A stretch of 64,000 nt of DNA from Candidatus Micrarchaeota archaeon (GCA_021828295.1 JAKASF010000001.1:2702-66701); one strand, 5' to 3'; positions 5,643 through 24,022 are shown, counted from the stretch's first letter. Translations and numbers: made by a program. Notes: generated by a model not told the origin, from the sequence alone.

Positions 5643-6011
5643 ATGGCGATAAACAAGTTGCAGGTCCTGCTTTATACCATTACTTTGGCTAGCATAGTGT
5701 CGGTTGTGCTAGGAGACAGCCTCCTGAGCTCGCTCTCTGCGACGCTCTGCGGCTTCGTCACAACCATAAGGACCATAATAGGCGTTCTCGCGCTTGCTCT
5801 CTTCCTTATAGGTGGAGTTCTATATGCAATAGCCCACTTCCTCCCAACATCTCTCGATTATAGGAAGAACCTGATGGGCTGGTCCACCGCAATGATAGTC
5901 GGAGGCATAATCGGCCTCGTAGTGGTCATAATAGCGCAGCCGCTGGTTACGCTCTTCATCCAAACGGGCAGCGCCGCCGGAGGGAGCGTCTCGAGCATCT
6001 TCTGCCCTTAA
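5643..6011 (+). CDS. Small two-helix membrane protein, VirB2/TrbC/CedA1-like pilin candidate (locus A)
   Basis: 122 aa. The order is a signal-like N-terminus (MAINKLQVLLYTITLASIVSVVLG), a hydrophobic helix (IIGVLALALFLIGGVLYAIAHF), a short basic loop (LPTSLDYRKNLMGW), then a second helix (STAMIVGGIIGLVVVIIAQPLV). It is a paralogue of 62893..63270: LFLIGGVLYAIAHFLPTS aligns with LFIVAGIFYAIGQLFPAT. Confidence 0.6.
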   Translation: MAINKLQVLLYTITLASIVSVVLGDSLLSSLSATLCGFVTTIRTIIGVLALALFLIGGVLYAIAHFLPTSLDYRKNLMGWSTAMIVGGIIGLVVVIIAQPLVTLFIQTGSAAGGSVSSIFCP

Positions 6012-6036
6012 ATAGCTTGCCAGCCAATCCAGCAGC

Positions 6037-7938
6037 ATGCGATTAGAGCGGGGCAGGCTTACCTATCTTGAGCTCTTTGTCCTGCTCGTGCTGTTCATAC
6101 TCAACGCCGGTATAGCGCTCCTCTACTTCTACATCTCTCCCGGCGCAGCCTTCTTCAGCGCGGCGTTCGTGCTCTCCGCCATAGCGTTCATCATCGCCTA
6201 CGTGCTCGGGCGCCACTCCGCGTCCCGCAGAGACGGTTCCATAGACCTGCTTCACGCCCTCTTCTCGCTCTCTCTTTTCTCGTACCTGATGTCCTTCCTT
6301 ACTGCTGGAGATGCGGCACTAGGTCTCGCTGTCAAGTTCATCATCTCGCTGCAGTCCATGGGCCTCTGGCTGGTGCTCCTCATCCCCATATTCTTCCTCT
6401 CCTTCACAAGCGTCTACTTCCTGAGGAAGGAGCGCAGGAGCAACCCCGCTGCAAAGCTCGCGCTGCTTGCAGTGGTCTTGCTGATTCTTATCCTGTACTA
6501 CTTCGTTGCGCTCAAGGGCATCTTCACCGCCGATGACGAGGAGCTGCTCAAGCTGACCAGCGTCTCGATGCTGCTCAACGGCACCAACCCCTACGCCTCG
6601 TCGATCTCCCTGCTCCTATACCAGCATACGTCTACGATAGGCGCCACGCTCACCACCGCAAACACCTTCCTCGGCACCATGGACTATCCGGCCCTCTTCT
6701 TCCTCTCCTTCGTGCCATTCTACTTCGCGGCGCAGCCTGTCATAGGAAGCCTCAACACCGTATACGGACCCCTGCAGTTCAGCACCTTCCTCTTCATACT
6801 CATCGTTGCGTTCACGCTCCTGCTCAGGCAGAGGCAGCTTATGCGGCCGCAGCTCACGCTCATGCTCGTCTTCGTTCTCGCCGCCACGGAGCTGTCTTCC
6901 ATAACCACCTACCTCATGCTTGCGCTTCTGCTCATCGCCTACGCGAAGATAGAGTCGAGATATGCGTGGCTTCCCCTCGGACTCTGCCTCTCGCTGCAGC
7001 AGGAGCTCTGGCTGCCAGTCTTCCTGCTCTTCGCCTACTCTTTCAACAACCAGGGATTCGGGAGAGGCATGCGCAACGCGATCGGCGCAGCCGTGGTCTT
7101 CCTGGTATTCAACGCCTACTTCATAGCCATAAATCCCGAAGCCTACTTCGGCTCCATCTTCGGCACGCTCAACCAGCTCATCATGCCCTTCAACCCCTCG
7201 CCCATCGCCTTCCTCATGCTCAAGTCTTACCAGCTGCCGCTCACCTCCTATCCAGTGGTCTTCGAGGCGCTTGCGCTCCTGCTCGGGCTCGCGTTCCTCT
7301 ACCTCAACAGGAAGCCGCTGATTCCCCTCTTCGGCCTGCTGCCATTCCTTGTGCTCGACCACATACTCGTCTCCTACTACGCCTTCTTCCTCTTCTTCCT
7401 GCTCTTCGCGCTCTTCACCTACGACCGCGAGAATCGCGCGGGATGGATAGAGAAGCGGCTGCGCGAGCACAGGCGCGGGTTCTTCGCCCTGCTCGCCATC
7501 ATCGCGCTCTCCACCCTGATCTTCGTCTATGCATCGCACTCGGCATACGAGCGGAACTTCAGCATTGGCGTGGTCAACCAGACGCTGTCGGTCAACAGGA
7601 CGAGCAACACCACAGTGCTCGACGCGCAGCTCGTCTACAGCAACATGAGCAACAGCACTCTCTACGTCTTCGCTTTCAAGTACTACGGAGTATCGGCAGG
7701 CTTCTCAGGCCTGCTGAACCAGAGCCTGATAAGCGAACCGCAGGCCTGCCCCGGCGGCAACTACACCTGCCTGGTGAACGTGAACAGGATAGAGCTCGCC
7801 AGCTCCTCGGGCACCTATCCGCTGCGGCTCACCATACACTGGTCCAACGCCAGCGATGAGGTGAAGGACGTCGCCGTTGCACTGTACAACAGGCAGTACT
7901 TCTACGTTGCGGACAGCGTCGGGGCTTCCGGAGCCTGA
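6037..7938 (+). CDS. Large polytopic membrane protein, GT-C-type glycosyltransferase-like, with sequon-rich C-terminal ectodomain
   Basis: 633 aa with more than 12 TM spans. The loop motif DDEELLKLTSVSMLLNGTNPY resembles the acidic-loop/'G-x-NPY' feature of DUF2029/PMT-like GT-C enzymes. The C-terminus carries many N-x-S/T sequons. Confidence 0.45.
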   Translation: MRLERGRLTYLELFVLLVLFILNAGIALLYFYISPGAAFFSAAFVLSAIAFIIAYVLGRHSASRRDGSIDLLHALFSLSLFSYLMSFLTAGDAALGLAVKFIISLQSMGLWLVLLIPIFFLSFTSVYFLRKERRSNPAAKLALLAVVLLILILYYFVALKGIFTADDEELLKLTSVSMLLNGTNPYASSISLLLYQHTSTIGATLTTANTFLGTMDYPALFFLSFVPFYFAAQPVIGSLNTVYGPLQFSTFLFILIVAFTLLLRQRQLMRPQLTLMLVFVLAATELSSITTYLMLALLLIAYAKIESRYAWLPLGLCLSLQQELWLPVFLLFAYSFNNQGFGRGMRNAIGAAVVFLVFNAYFIAINPEAYFGSIFGTLNQLIMPFNPSPIAFLMLKSYQLPLTSYPVVFEALALLLGLAFLYLNRKPLIPLFGLLPFLVLDHILVSYYAFFLFFLLFALFTYDRENRAGWIEKRLREHRRGFFALLAIIALSTLIFVYASHSAYERNFSIGVVNQTLSVNRTSNTTVLDAQLVYSNMSNSTLYVFAFKYYGVSAGFSGLLNQSLISEPQACPGGNYTCLVNVNRIELASSSGTYPLRLTIHWSNASDEVKDVAVALYNRQYFYVADSVGASGA

Positions 7939-7982
7939 CGTGCTACTATTTTTAATGTTAATGCGTATGTGCTACTGGTTGA

Positions 7983-8714
7983 ATGGCCAGCCTGATCGAG
8001 GACGCGTGGGAGACGTACGCGAAGAACATAAGGCTAGTGCTCCTCTTCTCCATACCGTTCATAATCGCATTCCTCATTCCCGCTCTGGTTCCCGTGCCCA
8101 CGTACATCTCGAGCGGCGCCATCTTCCTGAGGACCGCTAGCATCTTCCTCAACCTCAACCCCGCGGCACTCGCGATAATAGTCATCTCCCTGTTCATCTC
8201 CCTGCTCTTCCTCAGCTTCGCCTTCGTGGCGATAAGCCTCATAGTAAAGGCCGAGAGAACTTTCACCAAGCACCCCGCAGCCGTGTTGCGCGGCGTGGAG
8301 CAGTATACGGGCAGGGTCTTCATAGTGCTTCTAGTGTATGCGCTCATCCTGCTTGGCGTCAATGTACTCGGCTACTTCCTCAACCTGCAGGGCCTGCTCA
8401 CTGCAATCGTGGGCTTCTTCCTCTTCATGGCCATCTTCTACGCGCCCACAGCTATTGTGATAGACAACAAGCGCATAGGCACGGCGCTCAACCAGAGCCT
8501 AGAGCTTGTGGCGAAGCAGCCCGGCTACTTCATCATGTGGGTCGTGGTGCTGGTCTTCGTTGTGGGCGTGGTCGACTTCGCTGTGATACACGCAACGGGC
8601 ACGCTGCTCTCCAGCTACATAATGCTCGTCCTGAACTCGCTCCTTATTCTTCCCTACTTCGTCATCTTCCAGGCCGAGGCCTACATGAAGAGGTTCTCGA
8701 TACTCAAGCATTGA
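7983..8714 (+). CDS. Polytopic membrane protein (243 aa), unknown function
   Basis: About 6 TM spans and no recognisable catalytic motif. It lies between the pilin-like gene and the paralogue array. Confidence 0.6.
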   Translation: MASLIEDAWETYAKNIRLVLLFSIPFIIAFLIPALVPVPTYISSGAIFLRTASIFLNLNPAALAIIVISLFISLLFLSFAFVAISLIVKAERTFTKHPAAVLRGVEQYTGRVFIVLLVYALILLGVNVLGYFLNLQGLLTAIVGFFLFMAIFYAPTAIVIDNKRIGTALNQSLELVAKQPGYFIMWVVVLVFVVGVVDFAVIHATGTLLSSYIMLVLNSLLILPYFVIFQAEAYMKRFSILKH

Positions 8715-8730
8715 CGCGAATCGGCTAGCC

Positions 8731-8738: not shown

Positions 8739-8766
8739 GATGCGTATTTCAGTATGTGAAGAGAGA

Positions 8767-9930
8767 ATGAGGGGTAATCTTGCGCTTCTTCTCATTTCAA
8801 TTCTGCTGCTAGCCGGATCTGCGGCCGCAGCCCCCGCACCGACAAATCCGCTGACCTGCATCTCCTCCGCGCCGGCGATAGGCGGCAGCGCGATAAGCAT
8901 AGCGCTCGTTGCCCTACTCGTCTCGCTCAACGTAATCGCCATAGGCTACATAATCAGCAAGCTCGTGCCCGGGACAAAACTGGGCGACTGGGTGAGGAGC
9001 GAGTTCTGGGAGGTGGCAAAATCTGGCATGCTGATCGCCGGCGCGTTCGCCGCCATCGTGTTCATAGGCAACGTCTCCTCCATACTCGCCGGCCCCGGTG
9101 CCGTATCGGCTGGAACGACATCGAGCTTCGCGGCCTCCGCCTCTCTGGTCAACGGCGCATGCAGCTATCTCAACGGCGAGCAGGTCTTCATGTCAGATGC
9201 TTTCAACTATCTGCTAGGCATAGCCGGGAGCCTAGGCGCTCTGGCGCAGCTGCAGGTGAGCGCCTATTTCCCGTACCCTCCCGTGCCCGTGGGGTTCCTG
9301 CCGGTCGACTTCCAGTTCGGTTTCCGACTCAACCCGTACAAGAACGGCATGCTCACCGTCGTGTCCAAGACACAGTGGAAGTCGATCCTCGGAGACTCCA
9401 TCTACCTCATAGCGCTGCCTGTGTCGTTCATCATCTCGCTGCAGATCACAATGCTTCCCATACTCTACCTGCTGGGAATAGGCATGCTGATACCTATGGG
9501 GATAATCTTCCGGGCGTTCCCGTTCACCAGAGGCATAGGCGGAGCCCTGTTCGCCATTGGGGTCGGCGTTTCACTCATCTACCCTACGCTTCTGGTGCTG
9601 CTCAATGCCCCGGTCACCAGCGCGCTGCAGACCCTGAGCGCTCCGGAGGCGCAGTCCGGAGCCTGCAACTTCAATTGGCTTATATGCGGCCTTGCAAGCC
9701 CCCTCCTCTCGATGATTAGCTCGTTCCAGGGCATCGGCACCGCGTTCGCAAGCTTCAGCAGCATCTTTCCCGCGCTCAACGGCATACTCTCATACGCCGC
9801 GTTCATGATACTGCAGTTCGTACTTTTCGTGCTCGATCTCGCCATAACTTATTCGCTCGCCAACAACATAGCCGGAGTGCTAGGCGGCACGATAAGGCTG
9901 GAGATAGGAGGCAAGCTTAAGCTGAGGTAG
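8767..9930 (+). CDS. Polytopic membrane protein, array paralogue 1 (VirB6/TrbL/CedA-like candidate)
   Basis: Signal-like N-terminus MRGNLALLLISILLLAGSAAAAP. Family motif IIFRAFPFTRGIGGALFAIGVGVSLIYP. The C-terminal tail ...GVLGGTIRLEIGGKLKLR is shared with the other paralogues. Confidence 0.7.
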   Translation: MRGNLALLLISILLLAGSAAAAPAPTNPLTCISSAPAIGGSAISIALVALLVSLNVIAIGYIISKLVPGTKLGDWVRSEFWEVAKSGMLIAGAFAAIVFIGNVSSILAGPGAVSAGTTSSFAASASLVNGACSYLNGEQVFMSDAFNYLLGIAGSLGALAQLQVSAYFPYPPVPVGFLPVDFQFGFRLNPYKNGMLTVVSKTQWKSILGDSIYLIALPVSFIISLQITMLPILYLLGIGMLIPMGIIFRAFPFTRGIGGALFAIGVGVSLIYPTLLVLLNAPVTSALQTLSAPEAQSGACNFNWLICGLASPLLSMISSFQGIGTAFASFSSIFPALNGILSYAAFMILQFVLFVLDLAITYSLANNIAGVLGGTIRLEIGGKLKLR

Positions 9931-9931
9931 T

Positions 9932-11326
9932 GTGATGTTCGGCATAGCAAGTATACTGCTGGATGCGTCGACACCCAGCCCCACCGCCGCGTGCGGAGTC
10001 CAGGCGGCATCTGGCTGGCTCGGGATAGACGGTCTGGTGGTACTCGCCATAGTGACAGTTGCCGCGTTCATCTACGTGCTTGCAAACTTCCTTCCAGCGG
10101 CGAGGCGCGAGAAGCTGCGCGGCGCAGCGAACTACGAGATACTCGAGGCGCTCTTCAGCCTTGCCTTGGTGGTCGTGCTCTTCGTGGCGTGGTCAGCGGC
10201 GTGCAACATAGGCCCGCTCCTGACCCAGTCGACTACATCTACTTCAACGTATCAGGGGCTCTTCGGCGCAGACACGACGTATCTCGGCAACCTGCTCTAC
10301 CTCAACGGCGTCAACCTGGTCAGCAACCTCTACTCTACGTCGATAGGCTACATGATCGTTGCCAACATCTGGTACCTAGGCGCTACGGAAACCGCTAACT
10401 TCTTCGGCAGCAATCCGGTCAGCGTCCTCGGGAAGACGATCCCCGGAGCAACCTCGTCGCTGAACCCGCAGGTTGACGTCCTCTTCACCGAGTTCTCCGA
10501 ACTGTTCACCGCCATCTACGGCGCCCTGCTTGTCGGCGCTTTCAGCACCCTCTTCGTGCTCTCGTTCATCCTGCCCATAATAGAGGCCGGGGCCTTCGCC
10601 GTGGTCATACCCGTGGCGATAATAATGCGTTCGATCCCGTTCGCAGGCCCTGCGCTGAGGCGCACGTCCAACGCGTTCATAGCCTTGGCCATCGGCTTCT
10701 ATCTCGTGCTCCCCCTCATGATCGCATTCAACTCCTACGTCGCCACGTGCCTCAACATACCATACGGCGGCGGAACCGCCTCGTGCAACTACCTCAACAG
10801 CTTCCCTCAGATAAAGCAGTACCTTTCCGGCTATGCCAGCGTCGGCTCCCTCACCTCCGCAACAGCATCGATCTTCACGTCAACCGCAACGTCCGGCTAT
10901 GTCTCATCCAGCGGCTTAAGCGGGGTTAGCTGTGCCTCGCCAGACGACTACGTGTATGAGAGCACATGTGGGGATTCAAGCACCATAAAGCCCGGGAGCT
11001 GTCAACCCTTCTCATCTATCGAGAGCCAGGTCTGCGGAACGTACGCGATAAGCGGAACGAGCAGCAGCTACCTGCCCACAGGCGCGGCCACGCCGCTGAC
11101 CTTCTACAGCACCGCCTTCACCGGGCTTAACCAGTTCATCACGGAGATGTTCAACAGCCCCCAGGAGGCCGAGTACTACGGCAGCGCGGTCGCGTCCTAC
11201 CTCTTCCTGAGCGTAGTGATGCTTGCGATAGACCTGGCGATAACGGTCGGGTTCGTCTACGGCCTCTCAAAGGCCCTGGACTCTTTCGGCCAGCTCTTCG
11301 GCAGCGGGCCGGTATTGGGTGAATGA
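9932..11326 (+). CDS. Polytopic membrane protein, array paralogue 2, with one Cys-rich YVYE module
   Basis: GTG 9932/ATG 9935, 1 nt after the previous stop. Motif IIMRSIPFAGPALRRTSNAFIALAIGFYLVLP. Loop CASPDDYVYESTCGDSSTIKPGSCQPFSSIESQVC. Confidence 0.7.
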   Translation: MMFGIASILLDASTPSPTAACGVQAASGWLGIDGLVVLAIVTVAAFIYVLANFLPAARREKLRGAANYEILEALFSLALVVVLFVAWSAACNIGPLLTQSTTSTSTYQGLFGADTTYLGNLLYLNGVNLVSNLYSTSIGYMIVANIWYLGATETANFFGSNPVSVLGKTIPGATSSLNPQVDVLFTEFSELFTAIYGALLVGAFSTLFVLSFILPIIEAGAFAVVIPVAIIMRSIPFAGPALRRTSNAFIALAIGFYLVLPLMIAFNSYVATCLNIPYGGGTASCNYLNSFPQIKQYLSGYASVGSLTSATASIFTSTATSGYVSSSGLSGVSCASPDDYVYESTCGDSSTIKPGSCQPFSSIESQVCGTYAISGTSSSYLPTGAATPLTFYSTAFTGLNQFITEMFNSPQEAEYYGSAVASYLFLSVVMLAIDLAITVGFVYGLSKALDSFGQLFGSGPVLGE

Positions 11327-13227
11327 TGCAGCGCTTTGTGTTTGTCTTTGCTCTGCTCGCGTTCGCGGGCCTCTTCGGCAGCGGAGTCGCGGCAAGCACT
11401 AGCAGCACCCTCATCACTCCCTACTCGGCCTTCCAGGGATGGCTCCCCATAGTCTTCCTCGGCATACTCGTCAGCATAATGATCACCGCCTTCTACTACG
11501 TGCTCGGTGTCCTGCTTGACAACAAGAACGTGAAGAGCAGGGCCGTGGGAGAGTTCGCTCAGGCCACCGGCACAGCCATGCTCGTGGTGATAATACTGGG
11601 AGTCTTCGCCCTCATGGGCACCGGGCAGCTCTCGTTCGTATCGCTGCTCTCGCAGTCTTCGCTCGGCACCGTCTGCGGCCAGCTATACAGCTCGCCCCTA
11701 ACGCTGCTGGCCAACCAGCAGCCATCTGGAGTGCCCACGGCCACTAACACGATATGCGAATCCGCAACAGGTTCGCTCGGGGATCCGGTCACGAATAGCG
11801 TGGATTACGGACTGTACGCAGCGTACATAGTGATGGACAACCTCACAACCCAGGCTGCGAACAACATGAACGCGATGTACCTGACAGAGGGTTGGCTAGG
11901 CTTCCTTGCAAACTTCAACGCTTACGTGCAGGTCTGTGCCCCGCAGGACACCTGCATAGTGCCCCTGGCGCCCAGGGTGTTCAACATCCAGACGCAGTAC
12001 ACGCCCCTCGCCGGCTACACCTCTCTCACAACGCTGCTCAACCCGGTAGAAACAGAGTCGGTGCTCACATTCTATATCCTCTTCATACAGATGCTCGTGA
12101 TAACCATATTCCTCTACGCCTGGCCGTTCATTCTCGCGGCAGGCATACTGCTCAGGTCGACGTTCTTCACCAGAAAACTGGGTGGACTCCTGGTTGCGAT
12201 AACGCTTGCCATGGTGGTGGTGCTCCCTCTTACATATCTACTAGAGTACACCGCTTTTACGAACCTGAACCTTGGCCCGATAGGTGCAAGCAGCATACCC
12301 AACCAGGAGCTCTACGAGCAGAACGGCGCAAGCGTGGCAGTATACGGCATGCCTTCGCAGGGATACGTGCCAGCGTCTGCGGCAGGCGCGACCGGCTGCG
12401 CACCTTCCGATTATGTTTATTCTACAACATGCACCGCTCCATATTCCATAGGCAGCTCGCCGGCATGCGTGCCGTTCTCGCAGGCGCAGACGAGACTATG
12501 CCTCCAGGGCGGTTACGTGTCTGCTACGACAACCCAGAACCTACACAGCTCGTGTGTCGGTTCTTCGCACGGTAGTGTAGGATATGTGTATGAAACCCAG
12601 TGCGGTGTTCCCGATACCGCAGGTCAGCAATGCTCGTCCGACCCTTCACCTTCAAGCCTCTGCCCGACCAGCGGCTACGTGCTTTCGTCTTCGCTCTCCA
12701 CAAATCTCTGCGACCCGAGCACGCCCTACATATACGAGACCACGTGCGGAGACAGCTCTAGCATTGTGTCAAGCTCCTGCACAGCCAATCCTGTAAATTC
12801 AGGCACGGGGCAGGTGAACCTGTGCGTCGCGCCGCTCGACGCCAACATCAACTTCTTCGTGCTGCCCAACGTCGGCCAGGTGACCGGCTACTACGGCTGC
12901 AACGTTGGCGGTGACCTGCTCGCCAACGAGCTGGAGTTCGCCTCATGGTACCTCACTCCGCTCAATGCGTACTATGCGTTATCGCTTGCCGGGGGCCTGA
13001 TCGGGTCGCTGCCGCAGACTCCGCTCAACGGTTTCATACCAAACACGTGCACCCCAACAAACGCGCTCAACGCCGTCTTCGCGCTCGCAAACTCGTACGG
13101 TATAGTCTTCGTCTCCAGCATCTTCACTCTCATATTCAACGCCCTCATCGCGATCGCCGCTGTCTCGGGGCTGGCGACGCTGATGGGCGGTGACACAAGC
13201 ATACTCGGAATGGGTAGACTGATATGA
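11323..13227 (+). CDS. Polytopic membrane protein, array paralogue 3, with three Cys-rich modules
   Basis: ATGA start/stop overlap with paralogue 2. Motif ILLRSTFFTRKLGGLLVAITLAMVVVLP. Loops CAPSDYVYSTTC..., GYVYETQCGVPDTAGQQC..., PYIYETTCGDSSSIVSSSC... Confidence 0.7.
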   Translation: MMQRFVFVFALLAFAGLFGSGVAASTSSTLITPYSAFQGWLPIVFLGILVSIMITAFYYVLGVLLDNKNVKSRAVGEFAQATGTAMLVVIILGVFALMGTGQLSFVSLLSQSSLGTVCGQLYSSPLTLLANQQPSGVPTATNTICESATGSLGDPVTNSVDYGLYAAYIVMDNLTTQAANNMNAMYLTEGWLGFLANFNAYVQVCAPQDTCIVPLAPRVFNIQTQYTPLAGYTSLTTLLNPVETESVLTFYILFIQMLVITIFLYAWPFILAAGILLRSTFFTRKLGGLLVAITLAMVVVLPLTYLLEYTAFTNLNLGPIGASSIPNQELYEQNGASVAVYGMPSQGYVPASAAGATGCAPSDYVYSTTCTAPYSIGSSPACVPFSQAQTRLCLQGGYVSATTTQNLHSSCVGSSHGSVGYVYETQCGVPDTAGQQCSSDPSPSSLCPTSGYVLSSSLSTNLCDPSTPYIYETTCGDSSSIVSSSCTANPVNSGTGQVNLCVAPLDANINFFVLPNVGQVTGYYGCNVGGDLLANELEFASWYLTPLNAYYALSLAGGLIGSLPQTPLNGFIPNTCTPTNALNAVFALANSYGIVFVSSIFTLIFNALIAIAAVSGLATLMGGDTSILGMGRLI

Positions 13228-14570: not shown

Positions 14571-14571
14571 G

Positions 14572-15621: not shown

Positions 15622-15631
15622 GGATGTCGGA

Positions 15632-16813
15632 ATGATCGGAAGAAAGGAGATCGCAATCTGGCTCGTGGTCCTGGCCGCGCTGCTAGCAGGAACTGCGTTT
15701 GCCGCGGTCCCGTCCTCAAGCGCATCATCGAGCTCCTCCGGCTGCACCATCTCCGCATTCGCGGGCGAGATCTCCCCTTGGTACTGCAGCCAGCTCAACC
15801 AGGCAGTTGCAAGCGTGTGGTACGAGTGGGCGCCTGTCGTGTTCATCGCGGTCCTGCTCTCTTTCTCGATATCCGCACTGATATTCCTCACAGGTGTAGC
15901 GATGCGCAGCGAGAAGCTGAGGAATTTTGGCATCGGCGAGCTGTACGAGACAGTGGCGACGCTTCTGATAGCCGCGTTCTTCCTTCTCTTGTCGGCCATA
16001 CTCTTCGGCATCCTTCCGTTCCCGATAACCGGCCCGCTAAATCCCTACACCACCTCGCTCACCTACATAGGCCATGTCATAAACTCCACGCAGACCCTGA
16101 TAACGAGCATGTACAATCCCATCATGATAGACTCCATGTACGCAAGCATCTCGCTCGGGGTCTGCGTTGGCAAGAGTACCGAAGCCAATGGCTGCGAAGG
16201 AAACACGCAATCGGCTTCTGGCGTCTCGGGATCGGGAGTTGCCACGCGGCTCGCAGGGGGCCTGGCGCAAAACGTGTTCAACAAGCTCGCTCCGGCGATC
16301 GCGCAGTTCTTCCTCATACCCGCAAACGCGGTCATGGGACTGCTGTCGGACGGCCTGCTCGCCCTCTACGCCGAGTTCTACTTCATACTCTTCTTCATGT
16401 ACATATCCATACCCGTGCTCCTCGTTCCTGGCGTGGTCCTCAGGGCCATCTTTCCGCTCAGGGCGGTGGGGGGCATGATGATAGCCGCGGCGTTCTCCTT
16501 CTTCCTTGTCATGCCTGTGCTCTTCAGCGTGGCGTACATACTCACGAGCCCCGGCCTGGTCTACCAGCTCAACCAGCAGGCGGCGCTGATAAGCGCCAAC
16601 GGGCAGGGCACGTCAGCGCAGACGAACGCGGACAGCGCGTCATCGGTACTGGCCCAGGAGGTGCAGGGGGTGCAGAGCGAGATGGGCGGCTACTTCCTGT
16701 CTGTGCTTTTCTACCCCGCGCTCATACTCGCGCTCTCCTATACAACGATGACCATAATCGCCGACTTCATAGGCGGCGCGTCGCAGATGAGCAGCAAGCT
16801 CAGGCTGATATAG
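15632..16813 (+). CDS. Polytopic membrane protein, array paralogue 6
   Basis: 10-nt spacer containing a purine-rich GAGGA. Motif VVLRAIFPLRAVGGMMIAAAFSFFLVMP. C-terminal tail IIADFIGGASQMSSKLRLI. Confidence 0.7.
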   Translation: MIGRKEIAIWLVVLAALLAGTAFAAVPSSSASSSSSGCTISAFAGEISPWYCSQLNQAVASVWYEWAPVVFIAVLLSFSISALIFLTGVAMRSEKLRNFGIGELYETVATLLIAAFFLLLSAILFGILPFPITGPLNPYTTSLTYIGHVINSTQTLITSMYNPIMIDSMYASISLGVCVGKSTEANGCEGNTQSASGVSGSGVATRLAGGLAQNVFNKLAPAIAQFFLIPANAVMGLLSDGLLALYAEFYFILFFMYISIPVLLVPGVVLRAIFPLRAVGGMMIAAAFSFFLVMPVLFSVAYILTSPGLVYQLNQQAALISANGQGTSAQTNADSASSVLAQEVQGVQSEMGGYFLSVLFYPALILALSYTTMTIIADFIGGASQMSSKLRLI

Positions 16814-16857: not shown

Positions 16858-17688
16858 TTGGCTATTTCGCAGAAGTTCCTTTTCTCGATCCTGATGCTAA
16901 TCTCGCTGATATTCATAATAGGCATCTACCTGCTCGATGTGCCAGCAGTCTTCAAGCTCGTGCTTGCAGTCCTCGCGCTCGCCTTCGACCTTCTCGCCTT
17001 CTCCACAAAGCTCTACATGAGTTTCTTCATCCCGTTCCTGAAGGCCAAGAACCGCACCGTTACCCTGGAGGCCGACGAGGCGTTCAACATGGCTCCCTCG
17101 GGCAACGCGATAGTGGTCAGGAGGGGCGGCAGCGTGTACGCCAGCGCATTCATCACCATACCAACCTACAGGTCCGCCACCGAGATGAACAACGAGGAGA
17201 AGATAGATTTCGCCAGGCTGTTCAGCAGGGCGCTCACTATATCGAAGAGCTCGGTCAAGTTCGCGACGCAGCTCTACGTGATCAACAAGGATGCTTACAT
17301 AAGCAACATCCGCGGCAGGCTCGACGAGGCGGAGGAGAAGTACCAGAACGCGAGCATGAACCCGCAGATGAAGAAGGCTGATTCGGAGCGCACACGCGGA
17401 GAGGCCACAATGTGGCACAACCTCTACGACAACGTCAACAAGGTGGGCTCTCAGGCCCTGGAGGCGTTCGCGATGGTCAGCGCCGAGGGCGGCACCGAGG
17501 AGGAGGCGATAAACCTGGTGCTCCAGCGCGCCGACGAGATAGCCTCTGGGGTAAGCTCCGTCTTCGGCGTCAGCGCCGCGGTGGTGGAGGGCGAAGACCT
17601 GCTGAGGTTCGTGGAGCCCGACCACATGATACCGCCAATAACAGTTGGCGAGCAGCTGCGCGAGAAGAACATGGCTGCTGAGATGTAG
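16858..17688 (+). CDS. 2-TM + soluble-domain protein, copy 1 (VirB3/VirB4-N-terminal-like candidate)
   Basis: TTG start about 30 nt downstream of ATTATAAAT (16817-16826). Two N-terminal TM helices are followed by ...KSSVKFATQLYVINKDAYISNIRGRLDEAEEKYQ. It is a paralogue of 17697..18521 and 61153..61884. Confidence 0.6.
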   Translation: MAISQKFLFSILMLISLIFIIGIYLLDVPAVFKLVLAVLALAFDLLAFSTKLYMSFFIPFLKAKNRTVTLEADEAFNMAPSGNAIVVRRGGSVYASAFITIPTYRSATEMNNEEKIDFARLFSRALTISKSSVKFATQLYVINKDAYISNIRGRLDEAEEKYQNASMNPQMKKADSERTRGEATMWHNLYDNVNKVGSQALEAFAMVSAEGGTEEEAINLVLQRADEIASGVSSVFGVSAAVVEGEDLLRFVEPDHMIPPITVGEQLREKNMAAEM

Positions 17689-17696: not shown

Positions 17697-18521
17697 ATGG
17701 ATGAACGCACGATGATTTATCTTGGCTCGACGTGCCTGCTCGCGATAGTGATAATGGCGAGCTCCGCGGAATTCGGCAGCCTGTGGATAATCGCCTTCTT
17801 CCTTTCGATACTCGCCATAATGCTAATCTTCATACTCAACTACGCCGATTTCGTCGTGTTTCCGCTGTTCACATCGCTGCTGGGGGTCAAGATAGTGCCG
17901 GCGAAGAACTACTACATGCCAAAGGACAGCAGCAGCATAGTCAAGAACGTGGGCGGCATCTACTATGCAACGGGCTACCTCACAGCCAACGTCTACAACT
18001 ACGTCTTCGCCGCGGAGAGCGTGGACGAGGACGAGGCCGCGAAGCTGTCCGAGGGCCCCGACAAGTGGGAACGCATAGTAATGAACGCCGGCTTTCCGTT
18101 CAGGTTCAGCTTCGTCTCCGTCGCCGAGGACGTGCAGCGCTACAGGGACGAGCTGGAGGGCAAGCGCGGCGTCCTGGAGTTCCAGCTTTCCAAGGAGATG
18201 AGCAGCAGCACGCCGAGCGAGCTCACGATACAGGACCTGCAGAGGAAGATGAACGTGATAGACGCGAGGATAAACAGGCTGTCTGCTGGGGAGCGTCCCG
18301 TCGACTCCATCATGTATGTGGAGAGCACGGCCGTCGGGGTGAGCGAGAAGGAGGCGATAGACTCGCTGTCGAACCAGCTGGCTCACCTGCAGACACTGTT
18401 CAGCGCCTTCGACCTCAGCATAACGCGCGTGGTCGGCAGGGAGCTCTACCACCTCTTCACCTACAACTACGTGGTGCCCACCCGCGATGCGCTCGCGGAC
18501 ACGTTCAGCGCAGAGAGGTAG
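17697..18521 (+). CDS. 2-TM + soluble-domain protein, copy 2
   Basis: Two N-terminal TM helices. AGFPFRFSFVSVAEDVQRYRDELEGKRGVLEFQLSK aligns with ADFPFEFGLGVRSVEHVRILDALEEKRRLKEIELAR of the locus B protein. Confidence 0.65.
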   Translation: MDERTMIYLGSTCLLAIVIMASSAEFGSLWIIAFFLSILAIMLIFILNYADFVVFPLFTSLLGVKIVPAKNYYMPKDSSSIVKNVGGIYYATGYLTANVYNYVFAAESVDEDEAAKLSEGPDKWERIVMNAGFPFRFSFVSVAEDVQRYRDELEGKRGVLEFQLSKEMSSSTPSELTIQDLQRKMNVIDARINRLSAGERPVDSIMYVESTAVGVSEKEAIDSLSNQLAHLQTLFSAFDLSITRVVGRELYHLFTYNYVVPTRDALADTFSAER

Positions 18522-18561: not shown

Positions 18562-20067
18562 ATGAGCCTCGTAAGACTGCAGAACATAATGAGCAACGAG
18601 CTTGCAAAGCGCACCATATTCAGCAGGCCCCCGGAGCCGCCGCAGGAGTACCTGCTCAACGATCCCACGGAGTCCATATTCATAGGCATAACGAAGCTCT
18701 TCCACGTTCCGTTCACCTGGACCTTCGCCAGCCTCACGAACCCGCACGTCGCCGTCGTGGGAATAACAGGCGCAGGAAAGAGCTTCTTCGTCAAGACCTT
18801 CCTGACAAGAGCCAGCTACATCTGGAACACGAACGCGATAATAATCGACTGGGCCGGGGAGTACAAGGCCTGGGTCAAGCAGAGCGGCGGCGTCGTGGTC
18901 TCCCTGGGCAAGGGCGACTACATAAACATAATGGACCTATCGGGGATGAAGCCGGTTGACAGATCGAAGCAGATAATAGGATCGTTCGAGATACTCACTG
19001 ACATAAGCGACTACCCCGAGCAGAAGAGGCTCACGGTCGAGGCAGTGGAGCAGGCCTATGTCAACTTCGGTTTCGCTATGGCGGACCCTCCGCCCCCTGG
19101 CAAGGAGTCGCCGACGCTGAAGGACGTGATCGGCCTGCTGGAGGAGAAGCTGCAGGAGGGAACGTACCAGTACCCTGCAGAGCTGGAGAACGCGGTCTAC
19201 AGGCTGAGGCAGTTCGCAAGGGAGGGCGAGGACTACTTCGCGAGGAAGAGCACCATAGATCTCGGCAAGCTCGCGTCGTCGGGGCTTGTTGCCATCGACC
19301 TGTCCAACCTTCCAGACGAGAAGTTCAGGGCGCTCGCCGCGCTCTTCATACTCCAAACGCTCAAGGAGAAGATGCGCATGGAGGGATGGAGCGCCTCCAA
19401 GGGCCTCAAGGCGCTTGTCGTGCTCGACGAGGCCTGGAAGGTCGCGAGCGACGAGAGGAGCGACGCAGTGATGATAGTCAGGGAGGGAAGGAAGTACCAG
19501 TTCGGGCTGATAGTCGCATCGCAGAACCCCACGGACATAAACGAGGCCATCTTCTCGAACGTCGGCACCACTATAATGCTCAGGATAAGGTTCGAGAAGT
19601 TCCTGGACTACCTGCAGGGCTCGCTCAACTTCTCAGACTTCATGCGCAAGGAGATAAGCAAGTTCGGAGTGGGGCAGGCGGCCATTGACATGTCCTTCCA
19701 GACCAGCGTGCAGTTCCCCGAGGTCTTCCTGATAGAGAGGGTCGTGGGCGAGATACCCCTCGACGTGTACACAATCACCATAGCTGACGTTCTCAGCCAG
19801 CAGGAGCTTTCCGACGCGAACGTGCAGAAGGAGTACTACTTCGAGAAGATAGACCTCAACTCAAAGTTCATACAGTCCAACGTCAACTCCGAGGCTATAA
19901 ACAACATCTTCAAGGAGCTGGACACGAGGAACCGCATGGTAGACGTGCGCAGCCTCGTGCAGGTGATGAGCAACGAGAAGGTCGGCAAGGACACGATAGT
20001 CGAGCTCCTCAGGAGCGTCGGGCTCTCCGACGCTGTCATCACCAAGGTCTTCGTATACGTAACATAG
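18562..20067 (+). CDS. VirB4/TrbE/CedB-like P-loop ATPase (FtsK-HerA superfamily), locus A
   Basis: Walker A VAVVGITGAGKSFFVK. IIIDWAGEY. Walker B ALVVLDEAWKVASD. LIVASQNPTDI. I moved the start from the track's 18487 to the ATG at 18562 (MSLVRLQ...), because the upstream extension is Arg-rich and overlaps the previous gene. Confidence 0.8.
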   Translation: MSLVRLQNIMSNELAKRTIFSRPPEPPQEYLLNDPTESIFIGITKLFHVPFTWTFASLTNPHVAVVGITGAGKSFFVKTFLTRASYIWNTNAIIIDWAGEYKAWVKQSGGVVVSLGKGDYINIMDLSGMKPVDRSKQIIGSFEILTDISDYPEQKRLTVEAVEQAYVNFGFAMADPPPPGKESPTLKDVIGLLEEKLQEGTYQYPAELENAVYRLRQFAREGEDYFARKSTIDLGKLASSGLVAIDLSNLPDEKFRALAALFILQTLKEKMRMEGWSASKGLKALVVLDEAWKVASDERSDAVMIVREGRKYQFGLIVASQNPTDINEAIFSNVGTTIMLRIRFEKFLDYLQGSLNFSDFMRKEISKFGVGQAAIDMSFQTSVQFPEVFLIERVVGEIPLDVYTITIADVLSQQELSDANVQKEYYFEKIDLNSKFIQSNVNSEAINNIFKELDTRNRMVDVRSLVQVMSNEKVGKDTIVELLRSVGLSDAVITKVFVYVT

Positions 20068-20074: not shown

Positions 20075-20371
20075 ATGGCCGGAACCTTCACCATAAGCAG
20101 GATAGAGCTAAAGCGCATGCTCACCACCCTCGGCGTGAGCGAGCGCAGCATAGACGGGCTCGTGGCCGAGCTCAACAAGATGCACAGGCACGCCAACGCA
20201 GTTGCCTTCGCGGGCATGCTGCAGAAGGCGGGGCTGAAGGAGGGCGACGTGGCCAACGTGCTGAGGCGCATAGGCATAGACGACATCTCGATAACGAGCG
20301 TATTCGACACGCTCGAGGAGGAGCGCATAAGGAGCGCCTACGGGCGGGTTGTCGACATAGTGCTTGAGTAG
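20075..20371 (+). CDS. Small helical protein (98 aa) built from 'LxxxG[ILV]' modules
   Basis: MLTTLGVSERSIDGLV, MLQKAGLKEGDVANVLRRIGIDDISITSVF. The same module occurs at the C-termini of both locus ATPases (LLRSVGLSDAVITKVF; LRKLGIGEDELADSF). Confidence 0.55.
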   Translation: MAGTFTISRIELKRMLTTLGVSERSIDGLVAELNKMHRHANAVAFAGMLQKAGLKEGDVANVLRRIGIDDISITSVFDTLEEERIRSAYGRVVDIVLE

Positions 20372-20380: not shown

Positions 20381-20737
20381 TTGCCAAAGACTGTTTGCAT
20401 AATATGCGGGAAGGAGAAGAGAGGCATAGACGTAGCCGACGACCTCGTGCTCGACTCTATAAGGTGGTTCAAGCAGAACGTAACGCACAACGAGCGCGGC
20501 AACAGGCTCGTGGTGTGCAGGGAGTGCTATCCGAAATACGCGGCTAGCAGGAAGAAGTTCGAGTCGAGGCAGAGGCTCTACCTTGGCCTTGGCATAGTCT
20601 TCGCGCTGCTCAACGTGACGCTTTCCAGGACGCTTGCCAGCGTTGGCATCTCGCTGCTCATCCTGCTCCTCTTCATCTGCTTCTCCCTGATGAGCTACTC
20701 GCCAAGGATAAACATAAAAAAGCAACATAGTCAATAG
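20381..20737 (+). CDS. Zinc-ribbon (CxxC...CxxC) protein with two C-terminal TM helices
   Basis: TTG start 4 nt after a GGAGGT (20371-20376). CIICGKEK...VCRECYPKY, then LGLGIVFALLNV / ISLLILLLFICFSLM. Confidence 0.55.
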   Translation: MPKTVCIICGKEKRGIDVADDLVLDSIRWFKQNVTHNERGNRLVVCRECYPKYAASRKKFESRQRLYLGLGIVFALLNVTLSRTLASVGISLLILLLFICFSLMSYSPRINIKKQHSQ

Positions 20738-20767: not shown

Positions 20768-21502
20768 GTGCAGGAAGAGGCATCGGCTGCTGAGGCGGAG
20801 CCGAAGGTCGAGCAGGTCGAGTTCCCCGGCAGGCTACTAACCAGCGTGGACGACGTGAAGCAGAAGCTTTCGGGCATACCCTTCTACACCCTTCAGGCAG
20901 GCGCAGGCGGCCTGGAGATAGCAAGGGTAGAGAGCAGGAACATACACAAGAAGCCTTTCCTGTTCTACATAATAGACATAGGCTCAAGCTCGCTCAAACT
21001 CACATACTCGATAGTGCCTGGAAGCAGCGAGAGGCTTAGGCGGGCCGAGGTGATAAGGAACCTGGCGTCGCTGCTCTCTGTCGTGAGCGAGAGCTTCAAG
21101 ATAGACGATAGCAAGTTCTTCCAGTACGTGGACTCGGTGCTGGGCAGCCTGATGGAAGGCCTATCGCAGAGCTACAGCACGCTGTTCAACAAGTACGACG
21201 CGCTGCTCAACGAGTACGTGGAGGCGAAGAAGCTGCTCAGGGAGCTCGAATCCTCGAACAGGAACCTCACCATACAGACGAGCAAGCTGAGCGAGGACAC
21301 CAAGGCGCTCACCGCGCAGCTCAAGTCGCTGGAGACGTACTCCGACGAGGCCCTCATGTCGATGGTCCAGGAGTGGATAGAGGTGCACAACAGCTCCGTC
21401 GACATAGGCGAGTTCTCGAAGACGTACAAGGTCCCCGAGCCGAGGATCGAGCAGATACTCGACAAGATGGTCTCCATGGGCTACATAGAGCTGAAGAGTT
21501 AG
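20768..21502 (+). CDS. Coiled-coil protein with C-terminal winged-helix (locus A)
   Basis: GTG start, 244 aa. The central region LLNEYVEAKKLLRELESSNRNLTIQTSKLSEDTKALTAQLKSLE is a coiled coil. The C-terminus IGEFSKTYKVPEPRIEQILDKMVSMGYIELKS is wHTH-like. It is a homologue of 59358..60041. Confidence 0.6.
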   Translation: MQEEASAAEAEPKVEQVEFPGRLLTSVDDVKQKLSGIPFYTLQAGAGGLEIARVESRNIHKKPFLFYIIDIGSSSLKLTYSIVPGSSERLRRAEVIRNLASLLSVVSESFKIDDSKFFQYVDSVLGSLMEGLSQSYSTLFNKYDALLNEYVEAKKLLRELESSNRNLTIQTSKLSEDTKALTAQLKSLETYSDEALMSMVQEWIEVHNSSVDIGEFSKTYKVPEPRIEQILDKMVSMGYIELKS

Positions 21503-21511
21503 CTGGTTCGC

Positions 21512-21667
21512 ATGAAATATTTGGTAACAATAAACAGAAAGTACCAGTACGTCAGAGTCTACAACGTGCTGAAGAAGATGAACGAGAGCACAAACCCCCT
21601 CTCCAAGGCCGCGGAGAGGCTGATAGGCAGGTTCGTGCTCAAGAAGAAGGGCGAGGGCCTTGAGTGA
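21512..21667 (+). CDS. Small basic protein (51 aa), hypothetical
   Basis: Below the ORF-track size cut-off: MKYLVTINRKYQYVRVYNVLKKMNESTNPLSKAAERLIGRFVLKKKGEGLE. It fills the gap between neighbouring genes exactly. Confidence 0.3.
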   Translation: MKYLVTINRKYQYVRVYNVLKKMNESTNPLSKAAERLIGRFVLKKKGEGLE

Positions 21668-21679
21668 CGGGTGTGCCGC

Positions 21680-24022
21680 ATGCGTCCGGTAGCGAAGATA
21701 GCGATCGTGGTCGCGGCCTTCGCGGTGCTGCTCGCGGGCCTGGCGTTCTACGTTAGCAGTACGTTCTCTCAGTTCTCTCACGCCCCAGCGCCCCAGACGC
21801 AGCTCTCCGGCCCAATCACGCTTTCCGTCTCCGAGCCGTTCAGCGGCACCTACTCCATCAACGGCAGCGGCGCTGCAGTCTACTCGCTCCTGTCCTACTC
21901 TTCGGCAAACGCCACAAACGCCACAGTAACGATGAGCATCTACCCGAGGGATCCGGTATCGAGAATATATCTGCTCAACGTGAGCTCCACGTGCGTCGCG
22001 TGCTTCAACGAGAACCAGCTGAACTCGGAGCTGCAGAGCGAGTTGCTCTACTACAATCTCGTGGCAAACGGGACAAGCTTCCAGTACATAAACCAATCTG
22101 CGCTCTCCTCGGTGCCCGGCGGCTCGATAGTTATCGTACCGTCTGGCCTACTCCCGTTCTTCATGCTCAACGGCACCTCGTCGCTCATCTCGCTGCTCAA
22201 CAGGGGCGACACCATAATATACGCGGGTCTCAATTTCAGCAGATCTGTCGGCCCCAACGGGATAATCTTCATAAGCAGCCAGGCGATGCTCAACCAGCTC
22301 GGCCTCGCCAATCTCGACACCGTAGCGGTCAACTCGTCCCCGGTTGCAGGCAGCCAGGGCATAAACCAGAGCTTCAAGAAACCGACGTTCGCGTTCGCCG
22401 GCGGCAGCCTTTATGGCAACGCCACATTTGCCGCATCTGAGAACGGCACTGTGATAGCGTTCTCAAACTACCCCACCGGCTCGTGGAACTCGCCGGGCAG
22501 CATGGCCGCCGACATAGCCAGGGCCATAGCATCGGATTTTTGGATCCCTCGTCTGAGCGGCAGTGCCAGCACGCTCGATCTCGCCTCCAGGAGCGCGGGC
22601 AACCTTGGCATATTCTCTCCTGTCAGCGTGCCCGCGAGGAGCACAGCAAACCTGACCAGCCTGGTCAACGGCAGCTATACGGTGCTTACAATTACGGCGA
22701 TGAATGCGCAGTCGTCTGCAAACAGGAGGCTCGTCTCCCGCAACACGTACGAGCCCCTGGGTAGCGTGGGCGTGGCTTCCACTGTGGGCTTCACGCAGCT
22801 CGTGCCTGTGCAGATGCAGGTCAATAACCTGAACACGAGCCTGCTGGTGCATCTGGACGTGTACGACCTGAACCTGAGCTACGTGAGCTCCATCCCCATC
22901 GGTTTCATCAACAGCACGCTGGGCATAGTCAAGTTCCACGCGTTCACGCTTCCGAGCGGCTACTACCTTCTCGAGCTGAAGGACTTCAACAACAGGTACT
23001 TTGGGGGGGCCCTATTCCACATGGAGAACGTTACGATAACTCCTGTGGCTGTTGACTTCGCCAACGGGACCTTCTCGTTCTCGGTGTACAGCAATGGCCA
23101 GCCCGTGTCAAACGCCACCTACAGCGTCAACATAAACGGCCTCTACGGGAGCGAGGGGCAGGTATTCAACGGCGCGATAGACTACACGCTGCCGCATGGA
23201 ACTCTCATAGCCCACGGCGCAGAGAACTTCAACTTCGCGATACTAAACCAGAACTACACCTATTCCGCGCAGTACCAGTCGACGCAGCTCTACATCCCCA
23301 CCATATACATAGAGTTCGGCGTGGCCATACTGGTGGTGGTCCTCCTCAACCTAATACTCAAGCCGCCCAACCGCGACGAGTTCTACATCGACGTGCCAGA
23401 GTTCCCGCCTTCGAAGCGAGAGAAGGTGAAGGTCACTGAGAGTTCTGTGCTCGGCGTCTTCGACAAGGTCAACTACTACCACCGCTGGAAGTACATGCCG
23501 CTAACCGCAGACGAGCTCAAGCTCGGCATAGGAAACAACATACGCGTCAACAACATGCCCATCTCGATAACCATGCAGAACGCGAACGCGGCGCTGTCTG
23601 CGCTGGTGCAGGACAAGTCCGTCTCAGCGGCCTCGGGCTACTACGCGCCCACCGCATGGGTGACCGCGTCGGGGCACAGCGTCGAGTACCTTGCCGTGTT
23701 CAGGAAGCTGCGCGACTACTGCGTCGAGCACGCCATACTCTTCACGGACCTCGACTCCAACAGCACCGCAGACATGCTTATAACAAAGGACGGCAAGCAG
23801 ATGAGCGTCTTCATCTATTCGAGCGGCGCAAGGATGCACAAGCTCATAATATCGAGCGACTCCAAATCCGCCATCGTCTTCCTGAACGACGAGGCGGCGA
23901 GGGACTTCACCGCAGAGCTCTACAACTCATATGGAAAGCAGGCCGAGGTGCTGAAGCTTGGCATAGAGTACAACTACGTCAAGCTCGTGGACAGCGACCA
24001 CCTCGATCAGCTTGCGCTCTGA
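21680..24022 (+). CDS. Bitopic surface protein, sequon-rich ectodomain + cytoplasmic C-terminal domain (780 aa)
   Basis: N-terminal anchor/signal MRPVAKIAIVVAAFAVLLAGLAF. The ectodomain of about 540 aa carries many N-x-S/T sequons. A second TM (IEFGVAILVVVLLNLIL) is followed by a soluble tail of about 220 aa. No recognisable domain. Confidence 0.6.
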   Translation: MRPVAKIAIVVAAFAVLLAGLAFYVSSTFSQFSHAPAPQTQLSGPITLSVSEPFSGTYSINGSGAAVYSLLSYSSANATNATVTMSIYPRDPVSRIYLLNVSSTCVACFNENQLNSELQSELLYYNLVANGTSFQYINQSALSSVPGGSIVIVPSGLLPFFMLNGTSSLISLLNRGDTIIYAGLNFSRSVGPNGIIFISSQAMLNQLGLANLDTVAVNSSPVAGSQGINQSFKKPTFAFAGGSLYGNATFAASENGTVIAFSNYPTGSWNSPGSMAADIARAIASDFWIPRLSGSASTLDLASRSAGNLGIFSPVSVPARSTANLTSLVNGSYTVLTITAMNAQSSANRRLVSRNTYEPLGSVGVASTVGFTQLVPVQMQVNNLNTSLLVHLDVYDLNLSYVSSIPIGFINSTLGIVKFHAFTLPSGYYLLELKDFNNRYFGGALFHMENVTITPVAVDFANGTFSFSVYSNGQPVSNATYSVNINGLYGSEGQVFNGAIDYTLPHGTLIAHGAENFNFAILNQNYTYSAQYQSTQLYIPTIYIEFGVAILVVVLLNLILKPPNRDEFYIDVPEFPPSKREKVKVTESSVLGVFDKVNYYHRWKYMPLTADELKLGIGNNIRVNNMPISITMQNANAALSALVQDKSVSAASGYYAPTAWVTASGHSVEYLAVFRKLRDYCVEHAILFTDLDSNSTADMLITKDGKQMSVFIYSSGARMHKLIISSDSKSAIVFLNDEAARDFTAELYNSYGKQAEVLKLGIEYNYVKLVDSDHLDQLAL

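Follow-up and report, generated by a model that had tools for sequence, protein, structure and literature searches.

Genes of the locus

The window analysed here is a stretch of 64,000 nucleotides (nt) from a Candidatus Micrarchaeota archaeon (GCA_021828295.1, JAKASF010000001.1:2702-66701), and its positions 5643-24022 hold a locus of 17 tightly packed open reading frames (ORFs), hereafter g01 to g17, all running in one direction on the + strand. On the evidence of sequence and fold the locus encodes a VirB2-type pilin, six VirB6-like proteins and a VirB4 split over separate genes, its parts co-occur across genomes, and its inheritance is vertical. We therefore interpret it as probably an envelope machine that stems from a type IV secretion system (T4SS), is fixed in the chromosome and passes on vertically; it would be of the same kind as the Ced and Ted systems of Thermoproteota, in an expanded and rearranged form. 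The initial annotation of the window had described co-directional genes joined, across the core, by ATGA overlaps or gaps of 1-12 nt, and these junctions are real since they appear in the measured list of intergenic distances from g01 to g17 (in order, 25, 44, 52, 1, -4, -4, 1, 10, 44, 8, 40, 7, 9, 30, 9 and 3 nt); the co-directional ORFs were likewise found where they had been placed, 17 in number.

The first gene, g01 (5643..6011, +), encodes a VirB2/TrbC-type pilin. Its family (alignment A1, 18 members) has the architecture typical of VirB2/TrbC, comprising a signal peptide, a conserved Cys, a hairpin of two hydrophobic helices with a short basic loop between them, a mature length of about 70-100 amino acids (aa) and an invariant C-terminal Cys. 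The VirB2/TrbC/CedA1-like hairpin proposed for this gene at the outset is thus supported, with the Pfam model TrbC (PF04956) matched by 11 of the 18 orthologues (best E 1.3e-5), T4SS_pilin (PF18895) matched by 7, and the R388 pilin TrwL (8s6h) returned as the best match of the family profile among all PDB sequences (E 0.0045). The first helix of the pilin also aligns with the first transmembrane (TM) helix of the VirB6-like family encoded downstream (hhalign probability 78.8, E 1.6e-5), and g01 matches g05 by BLAST with an E of 1e-3; CedA1 and CedA, as well as VirB2 and VirB6, are reported to show the same similarity of pilin to channel N-terminus (PMC9905601). The CedA1 family (PF27251) is absent from the results of every Pfam scan made, and in hhalign comparisons with single CedA1-domain proteins from L066 neither alignment A1 nor alignment A2 was matched significantly.

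The two Cys residues of the pilin family lie just past the predicted signal-peptide cleavage site and, invariantly, at the extreme C-terminus, and a disulfide between them would join the ends of the hairpin. Head-to-tail closure has been proposed for some bacterial T-pilins, and the putative Cys-Cys tie in g01 may be likened to it. In some genomes two tandem pilin genes are found upstream of the VirB6-like array or of the ATPase module (L037:3626-4382, L041:12035-13009, and L059 with two g01-like ORFs).

The core of the locus is an array of six tandem polytopic genes, g04 to g09 (8767-9930, 9932-11326, 11323-13227, 13224-14570, 14572-15621 and 15632-16813, all +). That these are paralogues, as first suggested, is shown by a weak but consistent BLAST network (E 1e-4 to 1e-8) and by the motif FLxxGxxLRxxxxTRxxGG...P, which is common to 122 sequences of the family. 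A maximum-likelihood tree resolves six clades with one gene per genome each and support of 98-100, the only rows outside the six clades being those of the distant genome L037. Because the members have had one-to-one orthologues in these clades since before two families of the phylum split, the six-fold set must be ancient and each member has been kept.

To what family the array belongs is indicated by fold. An AlphaFold2 model of g08 (predicted local distance difference test, pLDDT, 85; predicted template modelling score 0.81) returns TrwI/VirB6 for all of the top five Foldseek matches (probability 0.96, E 0.08) and for the top three matches of VIA-align (Z 8.9 and root-mean-square deviation (rmsd) 6.3 Å over 240 of 272 residues, with the next match at Z 6.6), and VirB6 is the only whole-length structural match of the array family. 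No transporter or permease fold, which would have spoken against the first reading of the array, stood out for g08 in the fold search of cluster representatives, and a fold search of the ESM Atlas with the VirB6-like family returned only Microcaldota clusters. The TrbL/VirB6/CedA match that had been expected for 8767-16813 thus appears at the level of the fold, with TrwI/VirB6 on top, and not in the sequence. The VirB6-like assignment of g04 to g09 is accordingly a moderate one, which rests on the fold of an all-helical protein together with genomic context.

Two further observations concern the array. A short Cys cassette (Y-V/I-Y-E/S-T/S-x-C, with a second Cys 8-12 residues on) occurs in five copies, in g05, three times in g06 and in g07 (window coordinates 10949-10969, 12412-12432, 12583-12603, 12727-12747 and 13683-13703), and the copies sit in variable Ser/Thr-rich outer loops of these three paralogues. 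A looser form is present in 2 of 21 g06 orthologues and in none of the other orthologues; since the cassette is shared among paralogues yet almost absent from orthologues, a recent exchange of loop segments between paralogues in the lineage of the window is suggested. In addition, a strain variant from a second mine-drainage metagenome has 18 nt inserted in frame shortly after g08 begins (window position 14592), and about 2% substitutions over the array.

The array is followed by the genes that we read as the two halves of a VirB4. The motor is g12 (18562..20067, +), a 501-aa protein of the VirB4/CedB C-terminal ATPase type without an N-terminal domain of its own. It carries the motifs GITGAGKS, VVLDEAWK and ASQNPTD reported for it initially, with Walker A and B present, it begins about 60 residues ahead of Walker A, and no VirB4 N-domain is found on the same chain. 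Pfam gives DUF87, AAA_10 and TraG P-loop matches, and the top NCBIfam matches are CedD, CD1110-VirB4 and CedB at 1e-17 to 1e-19, with HerA at 1e-14 to 1e-15. The protein is collinear with VirB4 4ag5 (residues 58-332) and with the CD1110 VirB4-like model (residues 38-371) from Walker A to beyond Walker B, whereas its alignments with HerA are local (residues 235-375 for the PDB and 239-396 for the NCBIfam models). Orthologues of g12 are 501 aa long and 50-91% identical.

The missing half of this VirB4 is apparently supplied by g10 (16858..17688, +) and g11 (17697..18521, +), which encode membrane-anchored VirB4 N-terminal-domain proteins with a TM hairpin. The AlphaFold2 model of g11 (pLDDT 82) shows the hairpin followed by an alpha/beta domain whose best Foldseek matches are all TrwK/VirB4 (probability 0.98-0.99); residues 69-271 superpose on residues 220-384 of TrwK/VirB4, just N-terminal to the ATPase domain, with Z 11.0 and rmsd 3.6 Å. 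In the ESM Atlas the same domain finds DUF87/HerA_C ATPases of Thermoproteota, bacterial VirB4/TraC and CagE_TrbE_VirB fragments. The paralogy of g10 and g11, already proposed for the two proteins with a pair of TM helices and a soluble part, is seen through their orthologues, which give cross-matches down to 1.7e-22 and the joint alignment A3; the pair in the window has no direct BLAST match.

The relation between these genes becomes clear from proteins outside the phylum. In a search of 1.8 billion cluster representatives, the closest relatives of g12 were fused proteins of 813-997 aa, to whose residues ~273-640 residues 10-388 of g12 align, and residues 83-253 of one of them (P0160) are homologous to the g10/g11 family (hhalign probability 90.7, E 1.2e-6). 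P0160 thus holds a g10/g11-like N-terminus and a g12-like motor in one chain, and by comparison VirB4 is split in the window. The fused relatives follow the CedB model over nearly their whole length (E down to 7e-42), and in two independent metagenomic contexts their genes come immediately after CedA1-domain genes; for these reasons we place g12 with the CedB/VirB4 branch and not with the HerA repair helicases, as had been predicted. We identify g10 and g11, by fold and through the fused relatives, as detached N-terminal domains of VirB4. A complex prediction for g11 (residues 63-274) with g12 (residues 1-420) scored 0.31, the mark being 0.32.

A Pro-rich stretch at the N-terminus of g12 (window 18562-18720; residues 17-27, with R17 and PPEPP at 23-27) is invariant in 26 orthologues at identities down to 48%, and may be a candidate docking element for the detached N-domain proteins.

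Seven genes remain, five of them downstream of g12. The product of g13 (20075..20371, +), first described as a 98-aa helical protein, can now be specified as a free-standing copy of the C-terminal helical domain of g12, as it aligns with residues 423-501 of alignment A4, the last ~80 residues of g12 (hhalign probability 97.1, E 6e-11). That of g14 (20381..20737, +; alignment A6) has a cytoplasmic Zn-ribbon (CxxC...CxxC) followed by a TM hairpin with an SLLSYxP motif; it was considered as a VirB3 and rejected, since the window copy alone matches (E 0.041) and none of 31 orthologues does. The g15 protein (20768..21502, +; alignment A7) consists of a cytoplasmic coiled coil and a C-terminal winged helix, and is conserved beside the ATPase throughout the phylum; its matches are weak and generic (EAP30, PCI, TrmB, ZapB), and the ESM Atlas returned its own family alone. 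The 51-aa basic protein of g16 (21512..21667, +) has syntenic orthologues in 18 loci.

The last gene, g17 (21671..24022, +), encodes a 783-aa type-I membrane protein with an outer domain of ~510 aa that carries 22 sequons, a TM segment at 539-567 and a cytoplasmic domain of ~215 aa at the C-terminus, which is the most conserved part (alignment A5). Pfam, a PDB profile search and two ESM Atlas feature searches gave no match for it, and it differs from the S-layer protein published for Micrarchaeum, in which PF05123 is present.

Between the pilin and the array lie g02 and g03. The 633-aa polytopic protein of g02 (6037..7938, +) has a sequon-rich C-terminal outer domain; its sole Pfam match is weak (Wzy_C_2, E 0.069), and it shows no BLAST similarity to the DUF2079 protein encoded upstream of the locus. 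Its orthologues occur mainly in loci of the family of the window (f1) and are missing from most loci of a second family (f2), so that this gene, which is without a family assignment, is lineage-specific and outside the conserved core. By g03 (7983..8714, +) a conserved 243-aa membrane protein with ~6 TM helices is encoded, for which there are syntenic orthologues in 18 loci and a weak NCBIfam match to the BPSS1780 family (E 8e-5, far under the cut-off), and which likewise falls into no assigned family. The original proposal, which counted g02 with the machine, is corrected on this point.

Conservation, inheritance and a second module

A search for the ATPase in 151 genomes sampled from the phylum detected it in 136, and its identity to g12 falls with taxonomic distance, from 85% for members of the genus through 69-84% (family) and 63-71% (order) to 50-60% (class). 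Over the 32 loci fetched, the order g01-(g02)-g03-g04...g09-g10-g11-g12-...-g17 is kept across two families, and as more than 20 other genomes show this gene order again, the cluster is not a chance one. This survey of related genomes, which had been proposed together with the annotation, therefore finds that the gene set co-occurs and that the six-copy array is kept across the two families. In all of 5 genomes where the ATPase module stands alone, tandem arrays of ~6 VirB6-like genes are found at other sites, and three of the 5 have two such arrays. Conversely, five genomes that are 90-97% complete and have no ATPase are also without a match to the VirB6-like family, a co-absence that is to be taken as a pattern and not as a statistical test because the five genomes are related to each other. 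In a Micrarchaeota genome with neither the ATPase nor the VirB6-like family (G086), giant ORFs (3404 and 2942 aa; G086:C1:781266-794948) match the ATPase domain weakly, and they resemble the giant surface proteins with VirB4-like domains of Nanohaloarchaeota (PMC10266531).

A DUF2079 membrane protein is encoded upstream of the locus and Topo VI-B downstream, in convergent orientation, both as initially annotated; 15 loci have Topo VI-B in this downstream position. GC content is even over the locus and its flanks (0.55-0.59), and no tRNA was detected flanking the locus. Pfam and NCBIfam scans of the 17 products and the flanks showed no relaxase, VirD4-type coupling protein, integrase or replication gene (no genome-wide relaxase search was made).

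The system has been rearranged in some lineages with all of its parts retained. Candidatus Micrarchaeum sp. A_DKE (NZ_CP060530.1) has the complete cluster at ~806-824 kb (L045), while in ARM-1 (AP024486.1; L036/L150) the parts are dispersed over at least four loci: the VirB6-like array occupies 342.7-350.5 kb, the ATPase module follows at 426.9-432 kb, g10 and g11 lie together at 450.3-452.0 kb, and the pilin gene is at 677.1 kb. In a genome of the window's own family (G042; L034/L151) the locus is cut into two blocks ~125 kb apart, again with every part retained. From sequence comparison, inheritance looks vertical and the locus looks chromosomally fixed and not like a mobile element, which agrees with the earlier impression that it does not resemble a conventional conjugative plasmid or element.

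Three genomes from distant families (G062, G093 and G080) have two separate VirB6-like arrays of ~6 genes each, and several genomes of such families (e.g., G062) have a second ATPase paralogue of 45-50% identity; the whole system appears to be duplicated in these families.

The window itself holds a second, minimal paralogous module of four genes on the - strand (60038..63270), which the initial annotation had missed. It comprises a pilin (62893-63270; A1 profile E 4.8e-12) without either of the two Cys residues of the g01 family, a VirB6-like protein (61889-62896; A2 profile E 4.4e-38) that is the seventh in the window, a g10/g11-like VirB4 N-terminal-domain protein (61153-61941; hhalign against A3, probability 97.5) and an ATPase (60038-61324; hhalign against A4, probability 99.8). 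This ATPase, which is without the ~120-residue insert of g12 and has a weak TrwB_AAD_bind match, is paralogous to g12 over its full length. A_DKE, ARM-1 and G042 carry the module as well; a 721-aa neighbour was considered as a g17-like protein and is not one.

As to the host, the source assembly comprises 769 kb in 32 contigs and is 88% complete. DNA of the window is found in mine-drainage metagenomes, its protein families are labelled Microcaldota in the ESM Atlas, and near-identical and related ATPases are named Candidatus Micrarchaeota, Micrarchaeia and Micrarchaeaceae. By these names, labels and origin the host belongs to a DPANN episymbiont lineage of acidophiles.

Proposed function and alternative explanations

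We propose a working scheme in which g12 would be the cytoplasmic motor, a role taken from its family, and g10 and g11 would bind it and tether it to the membrane. The six VirB6-like proteins would form a membrane channel or platform, and may do so as a hetero-oligomeric ring that matches a hexameric motor. By analogy with CedA1 and TedC pili, g01 would polymerise on the platform after export and cleavage, giving a tube across the S-layer. The products of g13 to g17 would be system-specific accessories, among which g17, as a large glycosylated surface protein, could span from the membrane to the S-layer and couple the outside to the motor. ATP hydrolysis would then drive assembly of the tube and the passage of macromolecules. 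The most likely function is that macromolecules pass, at the expense of ATP, between the Micrarchaeon and a cell associated with it as a partner, and the most probable substrate is DNA taken up from host or kin; Ced is known to import DNA (PMC9905601, PMC11868833). DNA uptake is favoured because of the analogy with Ced and because of the ~0.8 Mb genome of the episymbiont.

Several results weigh against this interpretation. No member of the system reaches any curated family cut-off: g12 scores 69.8 bits against a cut-off of 600 for CedD, 63.7 against 700 for CedB and 40.2 against 643 for VirB4_CagE (TIGR00929), and g01 of the window scores 15.6 bits against 26.6 for T4SS_pilin. On sequence alone g12 scores about equally against HerA and VirB4. 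For the array, the Z of 8.9 obtained with g08 does not reach what would be decisive in the case of helical proteins, and in an exhaustive search of cluster representatives, where no chain had Z >= 8, the VirB6 representative scored Z 6.9 (152 residues); the TrbL/VirB6 Pfam models are matched by none of the 122 family members, a profile search of PDB sequences with the family found nothing, and single CedA-like and CedA1 proteins gave no significant hhalign alignment. No role can be assigned to g02, g03 and g13 to g17, seven of the 17 proteins. As regards transcription, none of the listed sequence runs with DNA of the window is an RNA run, and two metatranscriptome runs from the same study gave just tiny, mismatched pieces.

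Among the alternatives, the one that fares best is a pilus or surface structure that serves attachment or host recognition alone, in which no substrate is moved and the ATPase acts in pilus biogenesis only. VirB4 is required for pilus biogenesis in T4SS, so the presence of the motor fits this alternative, as do the pilin and the large glycosylated surface protein g17, the two tandem pilin genes of some loci, and the scans of the locus in which no coupling protein or relaxase was found. This last point is offset by Ced and Ted, the closest characterised relatives, which transfer DNA without relaxase or coupling protein (PMC9905601, PMC11868833), and six conserved channel-type subunits together with a cytoplasmic set of winged-helix and Zn-ribbon proteins look excessive for a structure of attachment. 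We consider it unlikely that attachment is the whole function.

A much less probable explanation is an integrated conjugative element or the remnant of a plasmid, self-mobilising now or once. It is true that VirB2, VirB6 and VirB4 together define mating-pair formation (MPF) systems, and archaeal conjugative plasmids are also without recognisable relaxases (PMC12857230). However, the system is present phylum-wide with an ATPase identity that follows taxonomy, two families share Topo VI-B as a conserved neighbour on the chromosome, orthology is one-to-one for each of the six paralogues, GC is even with no integrase, replication gene or tRNA at the borders, and in ARM-1 and G042 the parts are dispersed yet all retained.

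That the ATPase is a HerA-type repair or defence helicase next to an unrelated envelope or glycosylation cluster is just as improbable, for while its strongest raw PDB sequence score is to HerA (8wiv, E 3e-14) and its orthologues are publicly annotated as 'HerA-like ATPase', its HerA alignments are local where the VirB4-type ones span Walker A to Walker B, the HerA equivalog models give 52-56 bits against cut-offs of 800-970, scans of the locus products and flanks showed neither a HAS-barrel N-domain in g12 nor NurA, Mre11 or Rad50 neighbours, the adjacent genes encode the VirB4 N-terminal domain, the fused relatives are CedB-like, and array and ATPase are present together and absent together across genomes. 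The annotation table of A_DKE lists another DUF87 ATPase, Micr_00101, as HerA helicase.

Taking the locus as a T4SS-derived envelope machine, its arrangement is not described in the literature that we searched, the coverage of which is incomplete and which included papers on Micrarchaeota cultivation, S-layer and cryo-electron tomography (cryo-ET); to this extent the original impression of a system with an expanded array not previously described holds. There are two architectural novelties, namely the division of VirB4 between N-domains anchored in the membrane and a motor that stands free, and a conserved set of six VirB6-like members. It is still to be explained how DPANN archaea acquire DNA precursors, lipids and proteins from their hosts, and we know of no interface machine that has been identified. 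To this question the locus adds a concrete gene set with T4SS parts, whose conservation over nearly the whole phylum makes the system a prime candidate for the exchange of material between Micrarchaeota cells and their hosts. The question is directly testable since the system is present in both cultured co-cultures, intact in A_DKE and dispersed though complete in ARM-1.

Cryo-ET of ARM-1 has shown a 21-nm barrel of unassigned identity in the symbiont envelope that docks host nanotubes (PMC11329633). It is possible, if doubtful, that this barrel is the symbiont-side interface machine proposed here, with a pseudo-six-fold VirB6-like ring on the split VirB4 and g17 reaching to the S-layer, and we offer the link as a speculative one. 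If it were true, the cell would obtain host DNA or other macromolecules through the barrel, the machine would be essential for episymbiosis, and it would be the archaeal counterpart of the essential T4SS of Patescibacteria.

Comparison with known systems

The solved structures that best match the products of the locus are those of the R388/pKM101 inner-membrane complex (VirB3-VirB4-VirB6-VirB8 with the VirB2 pilus), with TrwI for g08, the N-domain of TrwK for g11 and TrwL for g01. Counterparts of VirB5, VirB7-VirB11 and VirD4 were not detected here, similarity to VirB3 is unsupported, and where R388 has a VirB6 homopentamer the present locus has six distinct genes.

The closest relatives in organisation are the archaeal systems. 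Ced (Sulfolobales and Desulfurococcales; CedA, CedA1, CedA2, CedB, CedD and CedE), by which DNA is imported between cells following DNA damage, is likewise chromosomal and relaxase-free, with a VirB2-like pilin, one or more VirB6-like proteins and an ATPase of the VirB4/HerA superfamily, and in both systems the pilin resembles the N-terminus of the channel protein. The differences lie in CedB and CedD, which are fusions of N-terminal domain and ATPase, whereas here the N-terminal domain is on two separate membrane proteins and the ATPase is without it; in the number of VirB6-like genes, which is one or two in Ced and six here; in the pilin, which is unprocessed in the case of CedA1 and has a cleavable signal peptide here; in the additional conserved genes g03 and g13 to g17; and in the hosts, which are Thermoproteota for Ced and DPANN archaea here. 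Paralogue pairs do exist in Ced, namely CedB/CedD and CedA/CedE (PMC11868833).

Ted (Thermoproteales; TedA, TedB and TedC) shares the chromosomal location and a VirB2-like pilin with signal peptide, followed by a VirB6-like gene and a VirB4-like ATPase (PMC9905601). It differs in that TedB is an unsplit VirB4 and TedA is single, and Ted loci often carry genes for ParA/VirC1, HerA and Rad50, of which the scans of the present locus showed none. Compared with Ced and Ted, seven genes of the locus lack a counterpart. The second module of the window has nearly the same gene layout as Ted and Ced. With the present locus, domesticated conjugation machinery of the Ced/Ted type extends beyond Thermoproteota.

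Two bacterial systems offer parallels in lifestyle. The rvh T4SS of Rickettsiales belongs to obligately host-associated organisms with reduced genomes and has tandem, divergent VirB6 paralogues and duplicated parts (PMC2653234, PMC7648143); as the system of diderm bacteria it includes an outer-membrane core as well as VirD4 and VirB11, and its VirB6 expansion is independent. The T4SS of Patescibacteria (candidate phyla radiation, CPR) is monoderm-type and relaxase-free, has VirB2-like pilins and is conserved over a whole radiation of ultrasmall episymbionts, and it is reported to be essential for epibiotic growth in Saccharimonadia (PMC12102498, PMC12857230). Being bacterial, with an unsplit VirB4 of the MPF-FATA class and no six-fold VirB6 array, it resembles the present system in ecology and architecture and is not closely related to it. 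This parallel with the T4SS of ultrasmall bacterial episymbionts suggests a convergent use of conjugation-derived machines by reduced symbionts in both domains.

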